From assembly GCA_963717145.1 (NCBI GenBank), contig OY970325.1, positions 4,384,001 to 4,448,000 of the forward strand: DNA of 64,000 bases, in the 5' to 3' direction. The DNA is from an uncultured Armatimonadetes bacterium (lineage in GTDB: Bacteria; Armatimonadota; UBA5829; DTJY01). This document shows positions 7,097-61,652 of the stretch, one piece after another (the stretch's first letter is position 1; the number at the start of each line of letters is the position of its first letter). Below the pieces are notes generated by a model. That model saw only the letters and a list, made by a program, of their open reading frames with translations. It did not search any database and was not told where the DNA came from. A program made the translations under genes and the position numbers.

Positions 7097-7627
7097 GTGA
7101 GCAAGAAACGCAGGCGCATCTTCAGAGAATTCGCCGAGACCACGCTGATGACCGTCGTGGTTTTCGTCTTTCTGATAACATTCGTGGTCCAGGGCTTCAG
7201 GGTCTACGGCAGTTGCATGGAGCCGAACCTGTTTACCGGCGAGCGGCTGCTTGGCAACAAGTTCGTTTACCGGTTTGAAGATCCGAGCCGTGGGGATGTC
7301 ATCGTATTTCGGTTCCCCCCGGATCCGCACAAGATCTTCATCAAGAGGATCGTCGGACTCCCAGGTGAGACCGTCGAGATACGAGAGGGCAAGGTCTACG
7401 TCAACGGCGATGTTCTCCACGAGCCGTACATGCGAAACGTCGCCCACGGCGATTTCCCGCCGCAGAGGATCCCGAAGGGGAACGTCTTCGTTCTCGGCGA
7501 CAATCGGGATTCCAGCAATGACAGCCGGTTCTGGGGAGACCTGCCCATCGAGAACATCCAGGCAAAGGCCTGGCTTCGTTACTGGCCGGTCGCGCGTACG
7601 ACCGTCTTCAGTGCGCCCTGGCGTTGA
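7097..7627 (+). CDS. lepB: signal peptidase I
   Basis: GSCMEPNL (Ser box), IKRIVGLPGE and GDNRDSSNDSR; GTG start after AGGAG. Confidence 0.92.
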   Translation: MSKKRRRIFREFAETTLMTVVVFVFLITFVVQGFRVYGSCMEPNLFTGERLLGNKFVYRFEDPSRGDVIVFRFPPDPHKIFIKRIVGLPGETVEIREGKVYVNGDVLHEPYMRNVAHGDFPPQRIPKGNVFVLGDNRDSSNDSRFWGDLPIENIQAKAWLRYWPVARTTVFSAPWR

Positions 7628-7656: not shown

Positions 7657-8748
7657 ATGTCTACCATCAGCACCGCGGCCATCCGACTGCAGCAGGAAGA
7701 CCTGGAGCGGCTGAACCTCTCCCCCTGCGCGGCTCTGAGCGCCGAGTCGCGGGGCAGGATGCGCCCGGAAGACAAGTGTCCGATCCGCACCGACTTCCAA
7801 TGTGACAGGGATCGCATCGTGCACTCCAAGGCGTTCAGGCGGCTCAAGCACAAGACGCAGGTCTTCATCGACCCCGAGGAGGACCACTATCGCACCCGCC
7901 TGACGCATACCCTCGAAGTCGCCCAGATCGCGCGCACGGTCGCCCGCGCTCTGAGACTCAATGAGGACCTCACTGAGGCGATCGCCCTCGGACATGACCT
8001 CGGACACACCCCGTTTGGGCACTCAGGCGAGCGGGCACTCGATGAAGTCTACGCCGAGTACGTCCCCGGCGCATCCTTTCGGCACAACGAGCAGAGCCTA
8101 CGGGTCGTCGATTTCCTCGAGCGAGACGGTCGGGGACTGAACCTCACGTGGGAAGTGCGAGACGGTATACTCCACCACTCCAAGGGCAGCGACGACATCG
8201 ATTTCGCCACCCGTGATCGGGAGGTTGGGGAGGGTGAGATCAGCCATACCCTGGAGGGCCGGATAGTTCGCATCTCCGACCGTATCGCCTACATCAATCA
8301 CGACATCGACGATTCCATCCGCGCCGGAGTCCTGCGCGAAGAGGATCTGCCTCAGGACTGCGTGGAGGTTCTCGGGCGCAGGCACTCCGAGCGGATAGCC
8401 ACAATGGTCGCGGACCTGGTCGAGAACAGCCAGGGGAGGCCTGAGCTGAGTATGAGCCGAGAGACGATCGAAGCGATGGACGCGCTGAAGGACTTCCTCT
8501 TCCGGCACGTATACAGCCTCGACAGCCGCCGGTTGGCGGAACTCGATAAGGCGGAGCGCCTCGTCAAGGAGCTTTTTCGCTACTACATGGCCGAGCCAGG
8601 GCACTTGCCGGCCTGGCGGACCGCTGAACTGAACGATACCCCGGGCAGGGCACGCGCTGTATGCGATTTCATTGCCGGCATGACCGATCGCTATGCCGAG
8701 CAGCGCTACGCGGAGTACTTTATGCCGGAGAACTGGCCTTCGTTCTAG
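7657..8748 (+). CDS. dgt: deoxyguanosinetriphosphate triphosphohydrolase (HD domain)
   Basis: RDRIVHSKAFRRLKHKTQV, RTRLTHTLEV, HDLGHTPFGH and DFIAGMTD. Confidence 0.95.
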   Translation: MSTISTAAIRLQQEDLERLNLSPCAALSAESRGRMRPEDKCPIRTDFQCDRDRIVHSKAFRRLKHKTQVFIDPEEDHYRTRLTHTLEVAQIARTVARALRLNEDLTEAIALGHDLGHTPFGHSGERALDEVYAEYVPGASFRHNEQSLRVVDFLERDGRGLNLTWEVRDGILHHSKGSDDIDFATRDREVGEGEISHTLEGRIVRISDRIAYINHDIDDSIRAGVLREEDLPQDCVEVLGRRHSERIATMVADLVENSQGRPELSMSRETIEAMDALKDFLFRHVYSLDSRRLAELDKAERLVKELFRYYMAEPGHLPAWRTAELNDTPGRARAVCDFIAGMTDRYAEQRYAEYFMPENWPSF

Positions 8749-12117: not shown

Positions 12118-13224
12118 TTGACGGCCCCCAAACGTATATTAATTGCAGGGTACTACGGATTTTCGAACACCGGTGACGAGGCTGTTCTGGCCTCGATTGT
12201 CTCCGGGCTTCGACGGCAGGCGGGCGACGACCTCGATATCGCGGTCCTCTCCGCGCGGCCCGAGGAGACTGCTCGTACCCATGGCGTCAGGTCCGTCGGG
12301 CGGATGGATCTTCGCCGCGTGAGAGAGAGCATCCGTGGGTGCGATCTGTTCATCAGCGGAGGTGGAAGCCTCCTTCAGGACGCGACCAGCTTCAAGTCGC
12401 TCGTGTACTATCTTGCTCTGATCGAGATGGCCGAGCGAGCAGGCCGGGAAGTGATGGTCCTGGGGCAGGGGATCGGCCCGCTTCGACGGGGTATCTCTCG
12501 CATACTGACCCGCCGAGCGCTGGACAGAGTGTCGCTCATCACCGTGAGAGACGACGAGTCGGCGGACCTCCTGGCGCAGATCGGGGTCAGGCGTCCGAGG
12601 ATAGAGGTCACGGCGGATCCGACATTCACCCTGCGTCCGTGTCCTGTTGAGGAGGCGCACCGGCTGCTGGCCGAGGCAGGCGTCGTTCCGGATGAGGATA
12701 TCGTTGCGGTGTCGCTCAGGGAGTGGCCGGAATCGCCGGAGATCGAGTCCGCCGCCATCGACGCGCTCGCCGATCTTGCGAACCGGCTCCCGGCGAGGCT
12801 GCTGCTCATTCCGATGCAGATGCCGGGCGATGTCGAGATGGCTCGCAGGATCCGGCGTGCGATCGGCGAACGGATCGCGGTCCTGCCCGATGGATGCTCT
12901 CCCGAGCAAGTGATGGGAGCGGTGTCCGTATGCGGAATGGTTGTGGCGATGCGCCTGCACGCGCTGATCTTCGCGGCGTCAGCGGGCATACCGGCGCTGG
13001 GGATCAGTTACGATCCCAAGGTAACGAGTTTCATCGCGGCGGTGGGCCAGGACGGCATCTCTCTGAGAGAGGTGACATCCGGCCTGCTGGTAGACCGTGT
13101 GATCGAATCATGGAACCGGCGGTCTGATCTCGCCGTCCGACTAACTGAGCGAGTCCCGAAGCTGCGGGAGCTTGCCGAGCGGAATTTCCGCTTGGCCGCC
13201 GAGTTGCTGGCCGGAAGACTCTAG
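12118..13224 (+). CDS. csaB: polysaccharide pyruvyl transferase CsaB
   Basis: GYYGFSNTGDEA, GGGSLLQDATS, MRLHALIFA and YDPKV. Confidence 0.92.
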   Translation: MTAPKRILIAGYYGFSNTGDEAVLASIVSGLRRQAGDDLDIAVLSARPEETARTHGVRSVGRMDLRRVRESIRGCDLFISGGGSLLQDATSFKSLVYYLALIEMAERAGREVMVLGQGIGPLRRGISRILTRRALDRVSLITVRDDESADLLAQIGVRRPRIEVTADPTFTLRPCPVEEAHRLLAEAGVVPDEDIVAVSLREWPESPEIESAAIDALADLANRLPARLLLIPMQMPGDVEMARRIRRAIGERIAVLPDGCSPEQVMGAVSVCGMVVAMRLHALIFAASAGIPALGISYDPKVTSFIAAVGQDGISLREVTSGLLVDRVIESWNRRSDLAVRLTERVPKLRELAERNFRLAAELLAGRL

Positions 13225-13295
13225 ACTCTCGACTTTGACCCCCCGGATACCGCCTCGCCCGGCGGATACTCTCGCAGAAAGGGTGTAGCCATACT

Positions 13296-14750
13296 ATGAA
13301 AAGAACATACCGCATTCCGATCCTCCTGGCAGCAATCGTCATTATCGCTGCTCTCATCCAGGGCTGTGGCGGAGGAAGCAGCAAGAGCAGCGCCGTTCAC
13401 GGCACTGTCGCCGACCTCGATCGCAATGTCGTAATCGACGCAGACGTCTGGATCGGCTCTCATCATGCCCGGAGCCTCGTCACAGGCGCCTTCGGCATTG
13501 AAAACGTCCCGAGTGGGTGGCAGACGATCCACGCCAGAGCGACCGTCGATGGCAGGCAGTGGGAAGGCAGCACGGCAGTCGAGGTGCTCAAGAACGAGCC
13601 GACGATGAATGCCAACATCGTGCTCGCGCCCGCCGCCGACCTGACTACGATAACGGGCACTGTCACCGCCGGTGGCAGGAGGATCTCGGGCGCGAGAGTC
13701 CTGGTCACCACTCGCATCCTGCTGCCGTCCGGATCATCCAGTCAGGATGGCGCTTACGGCTCGATCGTGGCAGTGACGGACGGCCGTGGGGACTACCGCC
13801 TGGAGGACGTCCCGATGGGCCGGAGCGCGGTTATCAGCGCCTCCAACGCAGGCTTCGACAATGACGAAGTGCAGGTGGATGAGATCACCGATGGCATGTC
13901 CATCGATTTCAACTTGATCGCCTCAACCCAGCAGATTCCGGATGCGCCGGAACTCACCGGTGTAGAGTCATGGACGATGCCGAACCCGCTCGTCAGATCG
14001 TTCTCGACGCAGGCGACCCAGGGCAATCCTTATGACGCCGTCAAGGCATTCACCTCGAAGAAGTTCCGGGCGTCGCTCCAGAATCGCAAGACATCAGCCG
14101 CCGCCGCTCCGATGGCGGTCCGGGCCGTTTCGTCCGGCTCGCTGATCGAGATCGATCTCTACTGGAACGCTCTCGACGTGAACCTCTCCAGGGACATCGC
14201 GGGCTACGGCATCTACCGCAGCGTCGGTTCCGCCGATTTCTTCGCGATAGACTGGGTACGCGATCCATACGCCAACTTCTACGGCGATATGGGCGGGGAG
14301 ATCGAGCCAGGCGTCAACTACGACTACAGCGTGTCGGCGGTGAACCTCGATTTCCTGGATAAGCCGGTCAATCAGACGGAGAGCAACTGGAGCAATGTGC
14401 TGGGCGTGACTCCGCTGGGGAGCCTTCAGGCCCAGAACCCGTCGAATGATGCTTCCGTCGGCGGAAACCCGATCTTCACCTGGCAGCCCGTTTCGAGAGC
14501 GGATTCGTACTCCGTGTACGTGTACGCGGAATTCCCGACCATCCCGCTCGATCCGGGCGGCGACTACGGCGGCAGTCCGCCCTCATACGGCGTATTCCCG
14601 ATCTGGACCTCGGACTGGGAGGACGTCGACTCGGTTCAGTACGCCGGCCCCGCACTCAGTGCGGGTCACAGGTACTACTGGATCGTGACCGGGCAGGATA
14701 CGTCGCAGAGCGCGTATTCGTACAGCGAACTCCGATCGTTCACGAGATAG
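13296..14750 (+). CDS. lipoprotein with carboxypeptidase-regulatory-like and FN3-like beta domains
   Basis: Lipobox LIQG-C; TDGRGDYRLEDVP; DIAGYGIYRS...YDYSVSAV. Confidence 0.7.
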   Translation: MKRTYRIPILLAAIVIIAALIQGCGGGSSKSSAVHGTVADLDRNVVIDADVWIGSHHARSLVTGAFGIENVPSGWQTIHARATVDGRQWEGSTAVEVLKNEPTMNANIVLAPAADLTTITGTVTAGGRRISGARVLVTTRILLPSGSSSQDGAYGSIVAVTDGRGDYRLEDVPMGRSAVISASNAGFDNDEVQVDEITDGMSIDFNLIASTQQIPDAPELTGVESWTMPNPLVRSFSTQATQGNPYDAVKAFTSKKFRASLQNRKTSAAAAPMAVRAVSSGSLIEIDLYWNALDVNLSRDIAGYGIYRSVGSADFFAIDWVRDPYANFYGDMGGEIEPGVNYDYSVSAVNLDFLDKPVNQTESNWSNVLGVTPLGSLQAQNPSNDASVGGNPIFTWQPVSRADSYSVYVYAEFPTIPLDPGGDYGGSPPSYGVFPIWTSDWEDVDSVQYAGPALSAGHRYYWIVTGQDTSQSAYSYSELRSFTR

Positions 14751-15314
14751 ATGTTGAAGCGTTTGGTTCCACTGCTAACGGTTGTCGTTCTGGTTGCAGG
14801 GCTTCTCTGGTCGTTCATGTACCTGAGAGCCCTGCATCCGTTCGGCTCGGCCGTCACCGATCTGGGCGACGAGCGCCTGCAGAACGTCGGACTGGTGTTC
14901 GACAGGGCGACTCTCGTCGGCTGGTCGAACCACAGTAAGGCTTGGCAGATTCACGCAAAGGCGGTCGAGGTGAGCCGTGACCGCCGGCTTGCGACATTTC
15001 GAGGGGTCACCGACAGTTACCTCATGAGCAAGGGCGAGCGGCTTGCATCCATCACGGCGAGTGAGGCTGTCTATAATACCATCACACGTAACGTCTCGCT
15101 GCCCGGAGCAGTGAAGTTGAGCGTCAAGGATGGGCCGGTGCTCAAGACGAAGAACATGTTCTGGGACGCCGCCCGATCGAGGCTCGCATGCTCCGGCGGG
15201 GTCATGGCGACGATGGATGGCAGCTCATTCCAGGGCGACAGTATGGTGGCGAACCTGGACAACAGGGAGCTGACCGTCACCAGGGTTCGAGGCGTCATCC
15301 GCATCCCGGAGTGA
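14751..15314 (+). CDS. lptC: LptC-like LPS export periplasmic protein
   Basis: Single N-terminal TM helix, WQIHAKAV and beta-jellyroll pattern; precedes an LptA-like gene. Confidence 0.65.
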   Translation: MLKRLVPLLTVVVLVAGLLWSFMYLRALHPFGSAVTDLGDERLQNVGLVFDRATLVGWSNHSKAWQIHAKAVEVSRDRRLATFRGVTDSYLMSKGERLASITASEAVYNTITRNVSLPGAVKLSVKDGPVLKTKNMFWDAARSRLACSGGVMATMDGSSFQGDSMVANLDNRELTVTRVRGVIRIPE

Positions 15315-15327
15315 CCGGAGGACAGCA

Positions 15328-16116
15328 GTGCACGGAATGGTTGAGAAGTTGAGACCCATGAGGCTTGCGGTTGTGCCGGCATTGGCGGCGCTTCTGCTCG
15401 CGGCGGTCGTGGTTGTCGCCCAGCAGGCTGAGAAGCCGCCCGCCGAGGTGAAGTACACCGAGATCAAGTACTCCGCCGATACCTCCTCATACCGCTGGGA
15501 CGGCGAGGACCGTATCATCGCGCTCAAGGGGAATGTGAAATTCGTCCAGGGCGACACGACCGTCACCGCGGACAAGGCCGATTACCGCGAAAGCACCAAG
15601 ACCGCTCAGGTGTCCGGTAACCTCAAGATCACCGACCCGCAGACCGATGCGACCGGCGAGCTGTGCACTGTGAACTTCCAGGACAAGAAGGCCATGCTGA
15701 CCGGGAAGGTACACATGACCGCGCGGCCGAAGCTCAAGCCCAAGCCGGAGAATCCCGCCGCCAACAACAAGCCGAAGCCGGTCAGCGCCGAGTGGAAGGA
15801 CGAAGTCGTGGTGACCTGCGACAAGATCGAGTACTTCTACAAGGAGAAGCGCGCGGAGGCGACAGGGACTCTGAAGATCGTCCAGAAGAACAGGATCATC
15901 ACCGCCGATGCGGGCACGTATCTCGGCAAGGAAGAGATCGTGAAGCTCACCGGCAACATCCAGGCAAAGGATGAGAAGGAGAAGCACACCTTCTCAGCGC
16001 CGAAAGTCACCGTCTCTCTCAAGCAGGACGACGAATGGGTCGAGGCCGAGAAGGCGACCGGCACGTTTTACATCAAGGACGAAGAGTCCCCGGCTGAGGG
16101 AACGAGCAAGCAGTAA
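15328..16116 (+). CDS. lptA: LptA/OstA-like protein
   Basis: Signal peptide; repeated OstA-type LKGNVKFVQGDTTVTADKA motifs. Confidence 0.7.
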   Translation: MHGMVEKLRPMRLAVVPALAALLLAAVVVVAQQAEKPPAEVKYTEIKYSADTSSYRWDGEDRIIALKGNVKFVQGDTTVTADKADYRESTKTAQVSGNLKITDPQTDATGELCTVNFQDKKAMLTGKVHMTARPKLKPKPENPAANNKPKPVSAEWKDEVVVTCDKIEYFYKEKRAEATGTLKIVQKNRIITADAGTYLGKEEIVKLTGNIQAKDEKEKHTFSAPKVTVSLKQDDEWVEAEKATGTFYIKDEESPAEGTSKQ

Positions 16117-16152: not shown

Positions 16153-16245
16153 GATGCTTCGGTAGCAGAGCGAAGTGGCGCTGCCGAAGCGGATGTACCA
16201 GCGTGTGGCTTCGGCAGCGCCACTTCGCTCTGCTACCGAAGCATC
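16153..16245. repeat. REP-like inverted doublet (GCTTCGGTAGC family)
   Basis: Perfect 38-bp arms, each internally palindromic, between convergent genes. Confidence 0.85.
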
Positions 16246-16285: not shown

Positions 16286-17746
16286 TCACTGCATCTCCGC
16301 CAGCGCCGTCACGATCTTGTCCTGTACCGCATTCACCTCTGTCGAGCTGCACAGATGATGGTTCATCATGATCGAGAACGCCAGCGGCTCGCCCGCCTTC
16401 GTCGTCACGTAGCCGGAAAGCGTCCTCACCCGGCTGATGTAGCCGGTCTTCGCCTTGCAGTTCCCAGCGGCGGCAGTGCCCTTCATCCGGCTGCGGAGCG
16501 TGCCGTCCACTCCCGCGATCGGGAGCGAATCCATGTAGAGCTTGCCGTCCTTGTGGCGGTACATATAAGCCAGCAGGGTCGCCAGGTTGCTCGGTGAGAC
16601 GTAGTTCATACGCGCGAGCCCGGAGCCGTCGATGATGCTCAGTGCGGTCATGTCGAGCCCCGCCTTCTTCAGGAACTCCATCTCGACCTCCGCGCCTTTC
16701 GCGGAGCTGCCTCTTCCATTGAACTCCGCCCCTAGCGCCTTGAGGAGCGTTTCGGCGATCAGGTTGTCGCTCGGCTTGTTCAGAAGAAGCAGCATCTCGG
16801 ACATCGGAACGGACTGGTGGAACGCCACCATCTCCGCGCCCTCCGGCTTGGCGCCCCGAACCGCCTTGCCCTTGACCACGATGTCCGCCCGTTGAAGCAT
16901 CTCTTTCAGCACGGTCGCGGCAAAGAGCGTCGGCTCCTCCATGGTGATCGCCTCTTCCGGGCTCTCCGGCTTGCCCTCAGCCAGGTTCGGGGCGAGGGGC
17001 ACACTGCCCGTCACGTGGATGACGTTTCGACCCCGGATCCTGTCGACCGAGATCGTCTTCTTTGAGTCCGCCTTGCCCGTCGTGGAGTCGTTCTGGACGG
17101 TCATATACGCTGTCGCCGGTGTTATCCACACCGTCGTCTTTGCGCCCTCTTTCACTCCGGGACGAACGTACACGTCCACGACGTTCTTGTTGAGGCAGAG
17201 CGCGCTGAGTTGGGCGGAGTAGTAGTACGGCTCGTCATCCCAGTTCCAACCCCAGCCCAAACGCACGTCGTCGAACCAGGTGTCATCGCCGATGATGTTG
17301 CCCTCGATGACCTTGATTCCCTTGATCTGATCGGCCATCTGCTGCAGTTCACCCGGCTTGAGCACGGCGTTGCCGCGTCCGACGAGGATCACGTCGCCCT
17401 TCAGGACACCATCGGAGGTGCGCTCGCCACTCGTGTACAGCTCAGTCTTGAAGCGGTAGTTCGGCCCGAACTTGTCGAGTGACGTGGCCGAGACCAAGAG
17501 CTTGAAGTTCGATGCCGGAATGAACACCAGGTCCCTGTTCTTCTCATAGATCGTTCGCCCGTCCTTGAGCGATCGAACGACGACGCCTGCCAGTCCGTGA
17601 GCCAGCGCCGGATCCGTCAGCGCCTGGTCGATGGCTTGCGCGACCTCGGGTTCTGTGGAGGCCTGAGCCATCGGAACGGCAAACGAGACTGCCAGGATCA
17701 GCAGCACCAGGTACTGCAGGTTTCTTCTGCGTAAGATCATGTTCAT
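16286..17746 (-). CDS. dacB: D-alanyl-D-alanine carboxypeptidase/endopeptidase (PBP4, peptidase S13)
   Basis: PASNFK (SxxK), SDN, DGSGL and KTG motifs; signal peptide. Confidence 0.93.
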   Translation of the reverse strand: MNMILRRRNLQYLVLLILAVSFAVPMAQASTEPEVAQAIDQALTDPALAHGLAGVVVRSLKDGRTIYEKNRDLVFIPASNFKLLVSATSLDKFGPNYRFKTELYTSGERTSDGVLKGDVILVGRGNAVLKPGELQQMADQIKGIKVIEGNIIGDDTWFDDVRLGWGWNWDDEPYYYSAQLSALCLNKNVVDVYVRPGVKEGAKTTVWITPATAYMTVQNDSTTGKADSKKTISVDRIRGRNVIHVTGSVPLAPNLAEGKPESPEEAITMEEPTLFAATVLKEMLQRADIVVKGKAVRGAKPEGAEMVAFHQSVPMSEMLLLLNKPSDNLIAETLLKALGAEFNGRGSSAKGAEVEMEFLKKAGLDMTALSIIDGSGLARMNYVSPSNLATLLAYMYRHKDGKLYMDSLPIAGVDGTLRSRMKGTAAAGNCKAKTGYISRVRTLSGYVTTKAGEPLAFSIMMNHHLCSSTEVNAVQDKIVTALAEMQ

Positions 17747-17767
17747 GAGCACTAACCTTTCGAATGT

Positions 17768-17864
17768 GGGAATGGCTGATGGAGAATGGTTGATGGCTGA
17801 TGGTCGATGGTTGATGCCGGAGTCTGCATTCCCCATCAACCATGAACCATCAACCATTCCCCAT
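17768..17864. repeat. inverted heptamer tandem-repeat element
   Basis: (ATGGYTG)n followed by (CAACCAT)n. Confidence 0.8.
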
Positions 17865-17911
17865 GTCCTGCCACCAGTATGTTCCGCCAAGGAGGGGTTC
17901 TTGTCCTTCTC

Positions 17912-17940
17912 TTGAACCTTGGCCGGGCGAGTGTTATAAT
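17912..17940 (+). promoter_or_regulatory. sigma70-type promoter
   Basis: TTGAAC-17 bp-TATAAT with TGn extension. Confidence 0.7.
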
Positions 17941-17967
17941 CGCATAGCTCAACCGCGAGGTGCAAGG

Positions 17968-19011
17968 ATGCAGATCAGCGCGATAACCGCATCGGTTTCC
18001 GATCTTCCGCTCAAGGAACCGTTCGAGACGGCGAAGGGGCGGAAGACTTCATCTCCCGCCGTAGTCATGGAGATGCGTCTCGCCAACGGCGTCGTTGGAA
18101 TGGGGGCCGCCACGCCGGTGAAGTACGTCACCGGCGAGGATATCCAGTCGGTGATCACGGCGGTCGGCATGTGCAAAGACGATCTGATCGGTATGGACCC
18201 TCGATCCTACCGAGCCATCTTCGACGTGCTCTGTGAGGCCCTCCCGGACGATCCATCCGCTCGCGCCGGGCTCAAGATCGCAGCCGTGGACGCGTTCTGC
18301 AAGCTGTACAACCTGCCGATGCACCGGTTTTTTGGCGGCGCGCTCAACGAGGTCGAGACCGACGTCACCATCCCGATCACCTCGCCCGAGAACGCTCGTG
18401 AGTTGGCTCGTCAGGCCGCCGCGAACGGGTTCCACAGCCTCAAAGTGAAGGTCGGGTCTGACGACGTCGAGGAAGACATCGCCCGTGTCCGCGCGATGAG
18501 CGAGGGTGCGCCCAAGTGTCTCATCCGCGCCGATGCGAATCAGGGATTCGTGCCGACCGTCGCAGTCGGCTTCGTTCACAAGCTCCTGAACGCCGGCATC
18601 AAGCTCGACATGCTCGAACAGCCGGTCGACTACAAGGACCTGGACGGACTGCGCTACGTCACGCAGCACACATCGATACCCGTGTTCGCCGATGAAAGCG
18701 TGCAGAAGCCCGCAGATGCCATCAAGCTCGTGGAACTCGACGCTGTAGACGGCATGAACATCAAGCTGATGAAATCCGGCATCTCGGGCGCGCTCGATAT
18801 CATTGCCATCTGTCGCGCCGCGCAGAAGCAGTTGATGCTGGGGTGCATGATCGAGTCCGCGTATGGGTTCTCGGCGGCGATTCATCTTGCGGCCGGCACC
18901 GGCGTCTTTGGCCGGCTCGACCTCGACGCGCACCTTCTTCTCGCCGAGCAGCCGGGAACGTCCGGGCTGTTCACGGCTGACGGCCCGATGCTCAGGCCCG
19001 ACGACGGCTGA
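17968..19011 (+). CDS. L-Ala-D/L-Glu dipeptide epimerase (enolase superfamily)
   Basis: KVKVG, DANQG, EQP, DES, NIKLMK, GCMIES and DLD motifs. Confidence 0.88.
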   Translation: MQISAITASVSDLPLKEPFETAKGRKTSSPAVVMEMRLANGVVGMGAATPVKYVTGEDIQSVITAVGMCKDDLIGMDPRSYRAIFDVLCEALPDDPSARAGLKIAAVDAFCKLYNLPMHRFFGGALNEVETDVTIPITSPENARELARQAAANGFHSLKVKVGSDDVEEDIARVRAMSEGAPKCLIRADANQGFVPTVAVGFVHKLLNAGIKLDMLEQPVDYKDLDGLRYVTQHTSIPVFADESVQKPADAIKLVELDAVDGMNIKLMKSGISGALDIIAICRAAQKQLMLGCMIESAYGFSAAIHLAAGTGVFGRLDLDAHLLLAEQPGTSGLFTADGPMLRPDDG

Positions 19012-19209
19012 TGTGCCTGCGGTGCATTCGAGTTGAAGTGGGTGGCGACCGTCTCTCGTTATGGTTTCCAGAGAAACCTACTCGAGACTAGACGGGGTTG
19101 GGGTCTGGGAAGCCTGGCAGACCTCCGACCGTTCTCCACGAGTAGCCACTCTGGTGGCATAACGAGAGGCCGACTCACTCTGCGGAAATGCACCCGATGT
19201 GCCTGCGGT
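19010..19209 (+). other. rod-folding 172-bp insert flanked by 14-bp direct repeats (candidate structured RNA or non-autonomous element)
   Basis: GATGTGCCTGCGGT at 19010 and 19196; nested stems with G-U pairs in between. Confidence 0.65.
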
Positions 19210-19212
19210 TGC

Positions 19213-19241
19213 TTGACAGGACACGAGTCATTCTGTATACT
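19213..19241 (+). promoter_or_regulatory. sigma70-type promoter of murA
   Basis: TTGACA-17 bp-TATACT. Confidence 0.75.
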
Positions 19242-19317
19242 TTTCCAGGCAAAGAGGGCCGCACGGCACGGATTGAGCCGTTCGCTCCCAAGCCAGCCAT
19301 TCGGGAGGACCCGTTAT

Positions 19318-20598
19318 TTGGATACGATCTATGTAGCCGGCGGACAGAGACTAGAGGGCGAATTTCGGGTCAATGGGAGCAAGAACGGCACCTTGGCGAT
19401 CATGGCCGGAGCATTGCTTGCGGAGGATGTGACGGTTCTGGAGAATGTCCCCCGGATCGGGGACATCCACACGATGGTCGAGATGCTTCAGCAACTCGGC
19501 GTCAGGACCAGGATCGAAGGGAATACCGTCGAGATAGACGCCTCCCGGATCGATACGAACGAAGCCCCCTATGAGCTTGTCAAGAAGATGCGCGCGTCGT
19601 TCTGCGTCGCCGCGCCTCTTGTCGCGAGACTCGGATCAGCTAAGATCCCAATGCCGGGCGGGTGCGACATCGGCGCGCGGCCTGTCGACTTCCACGTCAA
19701 AGGCTTGCAGGCCCTCGGCGCCAAGGTGAGCATCGAACACGGTTACGTCACCGCCGAAGCAGATAAGTTCCGGGGCTCGGAGGTTTACCTCGATTTCCCC
19801 AGCGCAGGAGCTACTCAGCACCTGATGACCGCAGCGGCCCTCGCGGAAGGCATCACCCGGATAGAGAACGTCGCTCAGGAGCCCGAAGTCGTCGACCTGG
19901 CCAACTTCCTGATCGCGATGGGTGCGAAGATCCGAGGCCATGGCACGGGCACAATCGAAATCGAGGGAGTCAAGAGGCTTCACGGTGTGACCTACCCGAT
20001 GATCCCGGACCGCATGGAAGCCGGCACATTCGCGATCGCCGTCGCTATCACCCGGGGTGATGTTGTTATGCGGGGCGCATTCGCCGAGCATTGCACGGCG
20101 GTGCTGCAGAAGCTGCACGAAGCCGGCATCAAGTGCACCTCGGGCGATGACTGGATCCGTGTGTGCACCGACCGACGACCCCGTGCCGTGGATATCAAGA
20201 CTATGCCGCACCCAGGCTTCCCGACCGACATGCAGCAGCCGTTCGGCGCTCTGCTCTCCGTCGCGGAGGGGACTTCCGTCATCAGCGAGAACGTCTACGA
20301 GCGCAGGTTCAGGTACGTCTCCGAGCTGCAAAGGATGGGATCGGACATCGTTCAGGAGGGTCGCACTGCCATCATCAAGGGCGTGCCCAAACTGACAGGC
20401 GCGGAGGTGACCGCCACCGACCTGCGCGCGGGCGCCGCATTGATCATCGCGGGACTCGCTGCCGAGGGACGCACCGAGATAACCGGCGTCGAGCATCTCG
20501 ATCGCGGCTATGAGGACATTGTGGGCAAGCTGGCAAGCCTCGGCGCGGAGATAGTCCGTGTGGATACCGAGGCCAAGCCTGCGGTGAAGGAAGCGTAG
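19318..20598 (+). CDS. murA: UDP-N-acetylglucosamine 1-carboxyvinyltransferase
   Basis: GSKN, MRAS, PGGCDIGARPVDFH, PGFPTDMQ, DLRAGA and HLDRGY; TTG start after GGAGGA. Confidence 0.97.
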   Translation: MDTIYVAGGQRLEGEFRVNGSKNGTLAIMAGALLAEDVTVLENVPRIGDIHTMVEMLQQLGVRTRIEGNTVEIDASRIDTNEAPYELVKKMRASFCVAAPLVARLGSAKIPMPGGCDIGARPVDFHVKGLQALGAKVSIEHGYVTAEADKFRGSEVYLDFPSAGATQHLMTAAALAEGITRIENVAQEPEVVDLANFLIAMGAKIRGHGTGTIEIEGVKRLHGVTYPMIPDRMEAGTFAIAVAITRGDVVMRGAFAEHCTAVLQKLHEAGIKCTSGDDWIRVCTDRRPRAVDIKTMPHPGFPTDMQQPFGALLSVAEGTSVISENVYERRFRYVSELQRMGSDIVQEGRTAIIKGVPKLTGAEVTATDLRAGAALIIAGLAAEGRTEITGVEHLDRGYEDIVGKLASLGAEIVRVDTEAKPAVKEA

Positions 20599-22437: not shown

Positions 22438-22915
22438 GAAGCTATACCAGACGATGGCCGTGGTCACCTCAAAGGGCGATCCGAACGTCGTCGGGGAGAG
22501 CATCTTCCCGGCGCTCTTCGGTTCGGTGTTCACGCTGAAGTTCCAACTCAAGAGGTCCGGGCAGCCTGACTTCAAGGTAACCGGACTGCGCGCGCGGTGG
22601 CCGGATGCCCACCTAGTCCCGAAGGACCAGTGGACCGGCCACTGGGGTCTTCCGATCCCCGACAGCACGACCGAGTTGCCTGCGAAAGTGCCGGAGCCGA
22701 AGGTCACGATCGAGCGGTGGGAGTACGGCACGGTCGCCGAGATCCTCCACCTCGGGCTGTACACCGAGGAAGGCCCGACCATCGAGCGGCTGCACAAGTT
22801 CATCGAGGAGAGCGGCTACGAGATCGCAGGCGTCCACGAGGAGGAGTACCTGACTCGTCCGGATGCCAAAGTGCCGAAGACGCTGATCCGGTATCCGGTG
22901 CGGCGGAAGGAGTAG
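22397..22915 (+). CDS. stand-alone GyrI-like small-molecule-binding protein
   Basis: LHLGLYTEEGPTIERLH...HEEEYL...TLIRYPV. Confidence 0.8.
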   Translation: MPARSKDQSPRIYEKLYQTMAVVTSKGDPNVVGESIFPALFGSVFTLKFQLKRSGQPDFKVTGLRARWPDAHLVPKDQWTGHWGLPIPDSTTELPAKVPEPKVTIERWEYGTVAEILHLGLYTEEGPTIERLHKFIEESGYEIAGVHEEEYLTRPDAKVPKTLIRYPVRRKE

Positions 22916-23019
22916 CGGAGTATGGGAGTATGGGAGTATGGGGGTATGGGAGTATGGGAGTGTGGGAGTGTGGGAGTATGGGCGACTTGGACTCCCACAC
23001 CCCCATACTCCCATACTCC
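22916..23019. repeat. inverted octamer tandem-repeat element (GGGAGTAT/ATACTCCC)
   Basis: About 8 GGGAGTRT units followed by about 3 inverted units. Confidence 0.85.
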
Positions 23020-23036
23020 GCCAGAGAGGAATCATT

Positions 23037-23963: not shown

Positions 23964-24123
23964 ATGGGAGATGGTTGATGGTTGATGGTTGATGGTTCAT
24001 GGGAACCGGTTTCGCAACCCACCGTTCGGGAGGGAGTTGGACTCCCTCCCGCAGGACTCAATGGGGAGTTGAACTCCCAGCCCGGTATTGCGGGAGGGAG
24101 TCCAACTCCCTCCCGAACGGTGG
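23964..24123. repeat. heptamer run plus GGGAGGGAG-family REP doublet
   Basis: (GATGGTT)n at 23964-24002; inverted arms 24019-24123 around a degenerate third unit. Confidence 0.8.
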
Positions 24124-34218: not shown

Positions 34219-35286
34219 TCATCCCACCACGCTTACCATCAGGTCATGCGCCCCGTCCGGGCGGGCCATCTCGTAGTAGTAGAAGATCCGTCCGTCCATC
34301 TGGACCGCATCCACATACCGAAGCGCTCCCGACGCGTGCGGTGACACGATCGCCGGACCGTCCGGAGTGATCCGGTCGAACGAGCGGAGGTCCGTGCTGA
34401 CCGCCAGCCCCGTCTTCTCCTCGTAGTTCCCCTCGACATTGGGCGTCCCATCGTAGAACGCGTTGAACACCGGCCCGGTGGCTGGGGAGGGAGTACAACT
34501 CCCTCCCCAACTACCCTCTTTCGTTGGGGAGGGAGTTGTACTCCCTCCCCAGCCACCGGTTGACAGGACAACCGCCGTGACGCGGCTCTCGTAGGCGTCC
34601 CAACCGGTCCCGACATCGAGCGCGCAGCCCTGCCACTGGAAGCTGAGGCCGTCGTTGCTCGTCGCAAGCCCGGTGTACGACTTCACGAGCCCGGTGTTGT
34701 AGGCGTCGGAGGTGCCATGCAGCTTCTCCGCGCCGGCCGAAGCTCCCTCCGGAGTGATCGCCGCGTATGAAATCAGCATGTGGTATGCGCGCCCGATCAG
34801 CACGACGTAGGGATCCTTGACCCCCTCCAGGCCGACCTCGCCTGCCGTGAGCACTGTCTGTCGGGTCGCCGGGTCGAAGCCACTTGGGGAGTCGGCCTCC
34901 ATCACGTCGATCCTCCAGCGGCTGTCGGCCGGATCGACATAGCTGACGTAGAGCCGCCAGATGCCCTCCGGCGACTTGAAGATGCTCGATCGCTCCATCG
35001 AAGTCGTCCCGAACTGGTCCTTCGTCGCCGACCAGATGTCGGTGAAGTGGATGCCGTCCTCGCTCTCCGCGATGCAGCACTTGAACCCGCGGTCGGGCTC
35101 GACGCCTCTCGGCTTCCGATAGCGGAAGTAGAGGTAGAACTTGCCCGTCGAATCGTCGTACGTCGCGCTGCACGCCCCGACCCAGTTGCCCGCGCCCGGC
35201 CCCGGAGCCTCCCTGACCACAACTCCGGTCGCCGGGTCAAAGATCGGCGCCGCCTTAGACCATTTTCTGCTCAATGAGTTATCCAT
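34219..35286 (-). CDS. five-bladed beta-propeller glycosidase-like protein with an in-frame 27-aa repeat-derived insertion
   Basis: FYLYFRYR, KDPYV, GLATSNDGLSF and ALRYVD; insert TGGWGGS...SPA. Confidence 0.7.
   Translation of the reverse strand: MDNSLSRKWSKAAPIFDPATGVVVREAPGPGAGNWVGACSATYDDSTGKFYLYFRYRKPRGVEPDRGFKCCIAESEDGIHFTDIWSATKDQFGTTSMERSSIFKSPEGIWRLYVSYVDPADSRWRIDVMEADSPSGFDPATRQTVLTAGEVGLEGVKDPYVVLIGRAYHMLISYAAITPEGASAGAEKLHGTSDAYNTGLVKSYTGLATSNDGLSFQWQGCALDVGTGWDAYESRVTAVVLSTGGWGGSTTPSPTKEGSWGGSCTPSPATGPVFNAFYDGTPNVEGNYEEKTGLAVSTDLRSFDRITPDGPAIVSPHASGALRYVDAVQMDGRIFYYYEMARPDGAHDLMVSVVG
34475..34559. mobile_element. intragenic GGGAGGGAG-family palindromic doublet (MITE/REP-like)
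   Basis: Perfect 37-bp arms and 11-nt loop; ACCGG direct repeat 81 bp apart on the coding strand. Confidence 0.8.
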
Positions 35287-38590: not shown

Positions 38591-38738
38591 GGGCGTGCCT
38601 TGTGCCGCCCGTAACCCGACCACCGTCAGTCCTGAGTGCGCCGGTGAATGACGGCGTGTAACGAAGGACGGCTCGGTGCATCAAGGCCGTCCTTCGTTAC
38701 ACGCCGTCATTCACCGGCGCACTCAGGACTGACGGTGG
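38587..38738. repeat. GTAG REP half plus a 53-bp perfect inverted repeat
   Basis: GTAGGGGCGTGCCTTGTGCCGCCC at 38587; arms 38620-38672 and 38686-38738. Confidence 0.85.
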
Positions 38739-48144: not shown

Positions 48145-48237
48145 CATCCAATCGCGTTGGGGAGGGAGTTGGACTCCCTCCCCGCCAACTGAGTTACCGG
48201 GGAGGGAGTCCAACTCCCTCCCCAACGCGATTGGATG
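48145..48237. repeat. GGGAGGGAG-family doublet overlapping the 3' end of the dehydrogenase gene
   Basis: Perfect inverted arms CATCCAATCGCGTTGGGGAGGGAGTTGGACTCCCTCCCC. Confidence 0.85.
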
Positions 48238-50383: not shown

Positions 50384-50389
50384 ACTCTT

Positions 50390-51308: not shown

Positions 51309-51409
51309 GTAGGAGGGATTTGCCGGGATGATTGTGCCCGGTAATCCCGAACGCAACGCGCCGACCTTCGGGATTACCGGGCACAATCATCCCGGCAAAT
51401 CCCTCCTAC
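51309..51409. repeat. GTAG-ended perfect inverted repeat (about 43-bp arms)
   Basis: GTAGGAGGGATTTGCCGGGATGATTGTGCCCGGTAATCCCGAA and its inverse. Confidence 0.85.
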
Positions 51410-57289: not shown

Positions 57290-57447
57290 GGAATGGCTGA
57301 TGGTGGATGGTTAATGGCGGATGGCAGAACGGCAGAGGGGAATGGCTCTTGTGGGAGCAGCTTCCTAGCTGCGAACAGTGGCATCGCAGCTAGGAAGCTG
57401 CTCCTACAAGAGCCATCCCCCATGAACCATCAACCATTCCCCATCCG
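57290..57447. repeat. heptamer inverted element enclosing a GTGG/GTAG REP doublet
   Basis: ATGG heptamer flanks; inner palindrome at 57342-57416. Confidence 0.8.
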
Positions 57448-58429: not shown

Positions 58430-58636
58430 GAACACAGATCACACAGATGGCAGAGGATGACACAGAAAGAATTCATCAGGAAGCCAGGAAGGCAGGAAGG
58501 GAATGGGAGAATCGGAGACTCCGGATCCCCTATTCTCCCTTTCCCCCATTCTCCTGTTCCTGGCTTCCTTACTTCCTGGTTTCCTGATAACGAACTCATC
58601 CGTGAAATCTGTGTTTCATCTGTGCTATCTGTGTTC
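58430..58636. repeat. three-layer nested inverted tandem-repeat element
   Basis: Outer ACACAGAT/ATCTGTG units, middle CAGGAAG/TTCCTG units, inner GGGAGAAT/ATTCTCC units. Confidence 0.8.
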
Positions 58637-59700
58637 TACTTGAGCCTTACTTCCTTGCCGGTCTCGGCGGACTTGTAGATCGCGTTCAGGATGCGCACTA
58701 CCTCGAGGCCGTGCTCGCCGGTCGAGATCGGTGTCTTGCCGTTCACCAGGCAGTCTATCCAGTGGCGAATCTCCATCTCGTGGCCCGAGACATTGGGGAA
58801 GCCCGGGGTGATGTCCGCGATCGCGCCGTGCATATCCTTGTAGACGCGGAACGGCTCTACGTCCGCGCCACCCTTGGTGCCGATCAGGTTGGTGAAGATG
58901 AGATCCTTCTCGATGTGGGAAGCCCAACTCGCCTCGAGCATGAGCGACGCACCGGTATCGAGCTTGATGAACCCACACGCCAGGTCCTCGACATCGCATG
59001 TGCCCCCCGACTCGGAGGTACCCCAGTCGCCCATTCCCTCACCCTTGCAGCCGAACTCAGAGTAGGTCGAGCCGGTGACCGACACGGCCTTCGGGTTGCC
59101 CATCAGCCACAGAGCCAGGTCGAGTACATGGACGCCGATGTCGATCAGCGGGCCGCCGCCTGACTTGGCCTTCTGGGTGAACCAGCTCCCCATGCCGGGG
59201 ATTCCCTTGCGGCGGATCCATCCGGTCTTGCCGAAGTAGATATCGCCGAGTTCACCGTCCTCGATGAACTTCTTGAGGATCTGGGTGTCGCCGCGGAATC
59301 TGTTGTTGAAGGCGGTCATGAACAGCTTCTTCGCCTTCTTGGAGGCCTCGACCATCGCCTCGCCGTCTTTGGGATTGATGCAGAGTGGCTTCTCGCAGAT
59401 GACGTGCTTGCCGGCCTCGAACGCGGCGATTGCCATCTGCGCATGGAGGTAGTTCGGCACGCAGATGCTGACCGCGTCGATCTCGGCCAGCTGCAGCATC
59501 TTCCTGTAGTCCTTGAAGGTGTGCGGGACTGCGTACTGGGACGCCGCCCACTGCACGCGCTCATCGATGAGGTCACAGGCCGCTACGACCTTTACCTCGG
59601 GGCACTTCGCGTAGGCCCCGAGATGGACGCGCGCGATGCTTCCGACTCCGATGATGCCGACGTTCACTTTCTCGAGCTTGCTCTTCGACTTCGCTGCCAA
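58636..59700 (-). CDS. Gfo/Idh/MocA family oxidoreductase
   Basis: GIIGVGSI, CEKP and GGGPLIDIGVH. Confidence 0.92.
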   Translation of the reverse strand: MAAKSKSKLEKVNVGIIGVGSIARVHLGAYAKCPEVKVVAACDLIDERVQWAASQYAVPHTFKDYRKMLQLAEIDAVSICVPNYLHAQMAIAAFEAGKHVICEKPLCINPKDGEAMVEASKKAKKLFMTAFNNRFRGDTQILKKFIEDGELGDIYFGKTGWIRRKGIPGMGSWFTQKAKSGGGPLIDIGVHVLDLALWLMGNPKAVSVTGSTYSEFGCKGEGMGDWGTSESGGTCDVEDLACGFIKLDTGASLMLEASWASHIEKDLIFTNLIGTKGGADVEPFRVYKDMHGAIADITPGFPNVSGHEMEIRHWIDCLVNGKTPISTGEHGLEVVRILNAIYKSAETGKEVRLK

Positions 59701-59919: not shown

Positions 59920-60012
59920 GGGAGGGCGAGGCTCCGTCCGAGCCGTATGCTTCGGTAGCGCCACCTCGTTCTGCTGCCGAAGCATACGGCTCGGACGAAG
60001 CCTCGCCCTCCC
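59920..60012. repeat. GGAGGGCGAGGCTCC-family doublet with a nested GCTTCGGTAGC unit
   Basis: Outer arms match 62311-62369; inner unit matches 16153-16245. Confidence 0.85.
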
Positions 60013-61572: not shown

Positions 61573-61652
61573 ACCGGCTGTCATTCTGAGCGTAGTGAAG
61601 AATCTGTCTGCGCACGGCCAGATTCTTCACTACGCTCAGAATGACAGCCGGT
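61573..61652. repeat. GTCATTCTGAGC-family REP doublet
   Basis: ACCGGCTGTCATTCTGAGCGTAGTGAAGAATCTG arm and its exact inverse. Confidence 0.85.

Follow-up and report, generated by a model that had tools for sequence, protein, structure and literature searches.

A rod-folding insert bracketed by an exact 14-nt direct repeat between an epimerase gene and murA of an Armatimonadota genome, a candidate foldback DNA insertion

In a 64,000-nt stretch of the genome of an uncultured Armatimonadetes bacterium (contig OY970325.1 of assembly GCA_963717145.1, positions 4,384,001 to 4,448,000), hereafter the window, we analysed a 172-bp insert that lies between an epimerase-like gene and murA and is bracketed by an exact 14-nt direct repeat. 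We give a probability of about one half to the reading that the insert is an orphan, non-autonomous foldback DNA insertion, comparable to miniature inverted-repeat transposable elements (MITEs) or to repetitive extragenic palindromic (REP) doublets forming hairpins (REPINs), that it duplicated 14 bp of its target, and that it now forms a passive hairpin in the 3' untranslated region (UTR) of the epimerase gene. This reading builds on direct observations, namely the repeat itself, the folds of the insert, the compensatory changes between two sub-hairpins in its arms, and its absence from two syntenic relatives. The parts of the element are the following, with the coordinates of the window and no strand assigned to any of them.

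19010..19023: left copy of the 14-nt direct repeat GATGTGCCTGCGGT, exact; putative target-site duplication or attachment (att) core
19196..19209: right copy of the 14-nt direct repeat GATGTGCCTGCGGT, exact, at 186-nt spacing to the left copy; putative target-site duplication or att core
19024..19195: 172-bp insert, a non-coding imperfect palindrome (foldback element), from the fold and the arm alignment
19021..19062: left half of the basal stem, pairing with 19159-19194 and containing the perfect core helix 19051-63/19158-70
19159..19194: right half of the basal stem, from the minimum free energy (MFE) pair list
19079..19144: apical stem-loop, with a 10-nt loop inside the closing pair 19107/19118
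19063..19078: sub-hairpin 1, in the left arm, GGTTTC-CAGA-GAAACC, 6 bp, single occurrence in the window
19145..19158: sub-hairpin 2, in the right arm, GCCAC-TCTG-GTGGC, 5 bp, single occurrence in the window

The left copy of the repeat begins at the second base of the epimerase stop codon (TGA, 19009-19011). The exact 14-bp repeat, its 186-bp period and its start within the stop codon had been reported in a preliminary description of this DNA made from its letters, and all of them were reproduced here. Among the other palindromes of the window that were tested (n=19), none has a flanking direct repeat longer than 7 nt, the best repeat at each of the 19 measuring 4-7 nt against 14 nt at the insert. 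By our own estimate, the chance of finding a 14-mer repeat in a 52 x 52 search space is ~2e-5. Elsewhere in the window the 14-mer has one site with two mismatches (7107-7120), and its near-match counts are near the chance level (3 observed against 0.93 expected, with 4 of 100 shuffles reaching 3). It is absent from all 80 MurA-anchored loci of relatives (1.33 Mb) that we took from a species-representative genome collection. The shorter motif CTGCGG recurs at 19017, 19180 and 19203, close to both junctions.

The RNA MFE structure of positions 19021-19194 (174 nt) is a single unbranched rod with 63 pairs and an energy of -84.6 kcal/mol, and its pair list contains all six helices named in the preliminary description. 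The z-score proposed there as a check was calculated on both strands of the 200-nt stretch that includes the repeats and gave -3.68 (+) and -3.83 (-), with none of 200 dinucleotide shuffles being as stable on either strand. When the left arm was aligned with the reverse-complemented right arm, there were 63 matches, 12 mismatches and 24 gap columns; the arms are ~84% identical over the ungapped columns and carry many indels. The insert is made of two inverted, diverged half-units of ~86 nt each. No convincing coding capacity was found in the insert, whose longest internal open reading frame (ORF) has 44 codons and lies on the - strand.

The arms of the rod contain two smaller hairpins, located in mirror positions and 66 nt apart. 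The first, GGTTTC/GAAACC at 19063-78, had already been described as a competitor of the rod and is real, but its mirror hairpin GCCAC/GTGGC at 19145-58 had been overlooked. The two can be read as homologous units, having common flanks (TATG...CTACTC) and a common loop (CAGA). Their stems differ by three double changes that preserve pairing (T-A to C-G twice and T-A to A-T once) and by one pair lost on both sides, with no pair-breaking change; according to our own calculation, which takes six differences in ten stem positions, the neutral chance of such a pattern is ~0.002. When both sub-hairpins form, the element becomes a four-way junction without unpaired junction bases. Under DNA parameters this junction is the MFE structure of either strand (-42.2 and -38.8 kcal/mol), and RNA parameters place it 3.4 kcal/mol above the rod. 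Two alternative folds are thus predicted by the energy models, a rod and a four-way "clover" without gaps. These compensatory changes within one element are a small and clean example of hairpin constraint that is visible in a single sequence.

The comparison with relatives supports, at the level of sequence, an insertion in the window's own lineage. The best of the 80 loci come from two Armatimonadota metagenome-assembled genomes, L001 (75% MurA identity) and L004 (74%), and tblastn found the order epimerase-murA to be kept in these two loci only. The rod is absent from both of them. L004 has no rod, and the TGA of its epimerase gene falls within the TTGACA box of the conserved murA promoter; in L001, the spacer from stop codon to promoter is ~125 nt long and contains no comparable rod or fold and no sequence similarity to the element. 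Removal in silico of the insert and one repeat from the window leaves GGC-TGA followed by TTGACA 13 nt on, and the predicted empty junction is compact, like that of L004. Furthermore, the last bases of the right repeat together with TGC (GCGGTTGC) resemble the L001 bases before the -35 box (GCGATTGC), and the right repeat would therefore stand in the ancestral promoter context and the left copy in the ancestral stop-codon context. The exact and exceptional repeat, the compact predicted junction and the rodless relatives all agree with the earlier proposal of an insertion that made a long duplication of its target or used an att core. Further likenesses of L001 to the repeat or to the left end of the element (GCATGTGCCGCAG, GCAATTCGAG) were at the chance level by our own estimate and were rejected. 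A separate observation concerns the murA 5' leader of L004 (positions 7795-7950 of that locus), which carries a hairpin module, ATTATTCACG...GTGAATAAT, that does not occur in the window; its two copies share 78% identity and stand at a distance of 110 nt. Lineage-specific hairpin insertions seem to accumulate around the murA promoter.

These observations are consistent with a foldback element that entered the spacer separating the stop codon of the epimerase gene from the murA promoter, either duplicating 14 bp of its target or recombining through a 14-bp core. Its small hairpins may have been read by a transposase or recombinase acting in trans and encoded elsewhere in the genome. Since the flanking repeat is perfect and the arms carry 12 mismatches and 24 gap columns, the element was probably an imperfect palindrome already on its arrival, which would imply a donor copy somewhere. 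By co-transcription, the epimerase mRNA would now include the insert as its 3' UTR, where the rod would most likely act only as a passive stabilising or insulating hairpin, and murA keeps its own promoter intact.

Several results weigh against a foldback insertion. Searches of the 64-kb window with blastn and nhmmer (E <= 10) returned the element itself only, and the same programs found copies in none of the 80 loci, the only blastn match being one of 21 nt in locus L008 (E 0.2). There was also no match in the PLSDB plasmids or the INPHARED phages (distant blastn). The translated frames of the element were used to query protein collections, so as to catch spurious ORFs lying over other copies: the + frame of 66 residues gave one candidate among near-length proteins and the + frame of 95 residues gave 190 candidates among longer proteins, and in neither search did any candidate score. 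The 44-codon ORF of the - strand, compared by phmmer with 1.84 billion representatives, matched two long repetitive proteins in eight stretches each, low-complexity matches that we rejected. The copies with different flanks that the preliminary description had suggested looking for were therefore absent from the window, the 80 loci, the plasmids, the phages and the translated-frame protein searches. No transposase, integrase, Cas1 or reverse transcriptase appeared among the families assigned to 44 ORFs with Pfam and to 15 with NCBIfam, sets in which 23 of 44 and 6 of 15 ORFs (29 of 59 in total) had no family at all. The site in the relatives is moreover only empty-like, because these relatives are distant (74-75% MurA identity) and their spacers cannot be aligned outside the promoter. 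The strictly terminal inverted repeat GGTGCATT/AATGCACC is short and takes its first three bases from the direct repeat. Among the outcomes that the preliminary description had named as evidence against its proposal, the lack of other copies and of covariation across species was indeed found, but an empty-like site exists in a fairly distant relative.

How far the element resembles known mobile palindromes can be judged from its parts. In those portions of the study by Bertels and Rainey (PMC3116915) on which we draw, REPINs adopt either a long hairpin or a "clover" of lower stability whose units are each folded on themselves, the latter being described in the legend of Figure S11, and they show compensatory changes. 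As far as that account goes, the element is similar: it consists of two inverted short palindromic units around a spacer, can be a rod or a clover, is extragenic and non-coding, and shows compensatory changes. Unlike REPINs, which are multi-copy and tied to a RAYT gene, it was seen as one copy in the sequences searched, and no RAYT was found among the 59 ORFs covered by the general family scans. Its small hairpins also lie 42 nt inside its ends and not at the ends, and an extra apical stem turns the clover into a four-way junction. To our knowledge, transposition of the IS200/IS605 or RAYT type makes no target duplication, and a 14-nt repeat for this reason misfits a true REPIN, which is one more point against the foldback reading.

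Bacterial MITEs, of which Correia, ERIC and RUP are examples, offer a second comparison. Like them, the element is small (172 bp), non-coding and intergenic beside a promoter, has inverted repeats, folds as a rod and is flanked by a direct duplication. Unlike them, it has no family of copies and no parent insertion sequence in the sets searched, its 14-bp duplication is long for a MITE, and its strictly terminal inverted repeat is ~8 bp long, while complementarity spans the whole element; the ends GGTGCATT and AATGCACC pair and the complementarity continues inward. A literature search found no MITE with a 14-bp target duplication and nothing relevant on palindromic intergenic repeats of Armatimonadetes. 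We describe the element as working like a MITE or a REPIN and not as a proven member of either group, because its duplication does not agree with a REPIN and a multi-copy family has so far not been found. Sites of the integron attC, retron and dif-like kinds were judged by eye alone and rejected, there being no GTTRRRY/RYYYAAC cores and no reverse transcriptase or integrase nearby.

The best-surviving rival, which we nevertheless consider unlikely, is that the rod evolved in place as a 3' UTR or intergenic hairpin, serving as a stabiliser, an insulator or a substitute for a terminator, and that the repeat arose by local slippage or coincidence. Long intergenic hairpins are the rule in the window: it contains 51 inverted-repeat pairs, and at least 22 distinct regions fold better than the rod after GC correction. 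The rod also begins right at a stop codon, upstream of the murA promoter, and no intrinsic terminator was found nearby. In a scan of 4255 sliding 180-nt windows, the rod region ranked 23rd among distinct regions by GC-corrected energy (z = -2.25), and it has the most full-span rod pairs (63) of the scanned windows. The stability of the rod is not exceptional for this genome, and the length and the 14-nt flanking repeat alone set the element apart. Nor is it the only imperfect rod of the window, although the preliminary description had set it against perfect REP palindromes: others exist at 58430-58640, 57314-57444 and 17779-17864, the last two being 79-82% complementary. A hairpin evolved in place is, however, difficult to reconcile with a bracketing 14-nt repeat that is very unlikely by chance and has no parallel at the 19 other palindromes, and with the absence of the rod from the two syntenic relatives.

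The other palindromes of the window deserve a description of their own. One nested palindrome, GGGAGGGAGT-NNN-ACTCCCTCCC, is present in six copies, against 0 expected, arranged as three REPIN-like doublets.

24028-24114, 34485-34549 and 48160-48222: REPIN-like doublets of GGGAGGGAGT-NNN-ACTCCCTCCC, inside longer palindromes

This family is lineage-specific, because the motif is absent from the loci of all 80 relatives, and the presence of REPIN-like doublets of families other than the insert indicates that the host genome carries such palindromic repeat families. Long intergenic palindromes, with arms of 34-53 nt that are 100% complementary or nearly so, were observed at 38620-38738, 51309-51409, 16153-16245, 61573-61652, 34475-34559 and other positions. 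Some motifs are common to different palindrome sites, such as GGGAGGGCGAGGCTCCGTCCGAGCC at 59920 and 62282 and TGTAGTGGCCGTGCC at 50389 and 44468. Another long, imperfect rod occupies 58430-58640, between two - strand genes (~207 nt, -100.9 kcal/mol, z = -8.4), and is made of mirrored short tandem repeats of the ACACAGAT, CAGGAAG and GGGAATGGGAGAAT types. The hairpins at 22915-23021 and 17768-17864 likewise derive from mirrored short tandem arrays, with (GGAGTATG)n facing its complement and repeats of the ATGGTTGATGG type, and the second of these arrays (17768-17864) separates the divergent PBP4 and epimerase genes.

It is also unlikely that the insert is a templated insertion made without any transposase, that is, a one-off copy produced in the course of replication or break repair, when a polymerase switched to a donor elsewhere, copied ~172 nt of an existing palindrome and resumed 14 nt upstream of its point of departure, thereby generating the flanking repeat. 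Such an event would explain why everything searched holds a single copy, why the repeat is perfect and the arms are imperfect, and why the ORF families of the window include no transposase; the CTGCGG motifs at 19017, 19180 and 19203 could have supplied microhomology. No donor sequence was found in the 64-kb window, though, and the compensatory sub-hairpins and the gap-free junction look designed, even if a copied REPIN-like donor would show the same.

A more far-reaching reading, which we regard as improbable, takes the insert as the first member to be seen of a hitherto undescribed class of miniature foldback elements of Armatimonadota, which would be read as a folded four-way junction and inserted with a stagger fixed at 14 bp, for example by an integrase supplied in trans that is casposase-like or of another ruler type; a variant in which it would be the DNA copy of a rod-like RNA replicon is less likely still. 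In the parts of the casposase study on which we draw (PMC5137440), integration leaves duplications of 14-15 bp of the target beside the terminal inverted repeats, and artificial mini-casposons that bear nothing but these repeats are able to integrate. Going by these parts, the 14-nt duplication falls within the 14-15 bp range and the target is the 3' end of a gene in both cases. Casposons differ from the element in being large and gene-carrying, and neither Cas1 nor PolB was found among the window ORFs scanned. We treat casposase-like integration as a lead only, suggested by the length of the duplication and by the target.

Selection at the RNA level, leading to a retro-inserted, viroid-like or RNase III-processed RNA, had been the proposal of the preliminary description, and our data do not support this RNA-centred reading. 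A stand-alone structured RNA, either a 6S-like small RNA or the DNA copy of a rod-like (viroid-like) RNA replicon, appears very improbable. Its size of ~174-186 nt and its rod shape resemble 6S RNA and viroid-like rods, alternative local hairpins lie on either side of the rod middle, and the RNA fold of the + strand is 9.7 kcal/mol more stable than that of the - strand. On the other hand, the z-scores of the two strands are equal. The G-U pairs that had been pointed out on the + strand are not specific to it, as the MFE pair list has 6 of them on the + strand and 5 on the - strand, and the arm alignment read on the + strand has 5 mismatches of the G.T type against 2 of the A.C type, without significant bias. 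The suggested Rfam search, 6S included, gave no match at gathering scores in the whole window, and at E <= 10 the region 18900-19350 matched only uc_338 (E 8.3, chance level), with no 6S and no ribozyme family. A scan of 18700-19500 found no promoter-like site reading into the rod on either strand, and the searches described above found no second copy. Like 6S RNA, the element has ~180 nt and an overall rod shape. Unlike it, the element lacks an Rfam match, a promoter of its own, conservation at the locus in the two syntenic relatives and a large central bubble, the internal loops of the RNA MFE structure being small (~3-5 nt per side); the element is in addition bracketed by direct repeats, which 6S genes are not. 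It also differs from ribozyme-bearing viroid-like RNAs in having no ribozyme family match at E <= 10. No tRNA or tmRNA genes were found in a scan of the window. An assembly artefact is highly improbable, since the palindrome is imperfect and unique and so is not a collapsed repeat, and both flanks are intact and functional-looking (a stop codon and a conserved promoter), even though repeats can mislead assemblers and the window may be metagenome-assembled, as its nearest relatives all are.

Judging by family matches and sequence motifs, the foldback element sits within a cell-wall gene neighbourhood, comprising a PBP4-type carboxypeptidase gene, the epimerase gene and murA, in a window with a G+C content of 60%. 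The features around the insert are listed below.

16286-17965, - strand: PBP4-type D-Ala-D-Ala carboxypeptidase, from a family match
17968..19011, + strand: L-Ala-D/L-Glu epimerase-like gene, from a family match, with the ORF listed as 17842..19011 and the TGA at 19009-19011
19213..19241, + strand: murA promoter-like site TTGACA-17-TATACT, 11/12 consensus matches, downstream of the insert
19318..20598, + strand: murA (UDP-N-acetylglucosamine 1-carboxyvinyltransferase), with a TTG start and GGGAGGA ahead of it

The likely start of the epimerase gene is the ATG at 17968, because the family match begins at residue 43 of the ORF that starts at 17842. The murA promoter is the sole promoter-like site in 18700-19500 when both strands are scanned, and it is also present in L001 and L004. 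The reading frame of murA is uninterrupted from a TTG at 19033 across the whole insert and the promoter to 20598, and a gene caller could therefore add a false N-terminus of 95 residues to MurA (521 against 426 residues), a useful point for annotation. An ATG contributed by the left repeat overlaps the epimerase stop codon (TGATG) and opens a putative ORF of 26 codons into the insert (19011-19091); the right repeat likewise supplies the ATG of a longer, out-of-frame ORF, which is putative as well. Elsewhere in the window (12118-16116), a CsaB pyruvyl transferase gene adjoins LptC- and LptA-like genes, an arrangement that suggests an outer-membrane-bearing cell with anchoring through a pyruvylated cell-wall polymer.

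The mobile elements of Armatimonadota have hardly been studied. If the foldback reading is true, the insert would add another lineage-specific hairpin insertion to a genome already rich in intergenic palindromes. A family of elements of this kind in the full genome, each flanked by 14-bp duplications, would point to an unknown integrase that has a long fixed stagger and reads a folded four-way junction.

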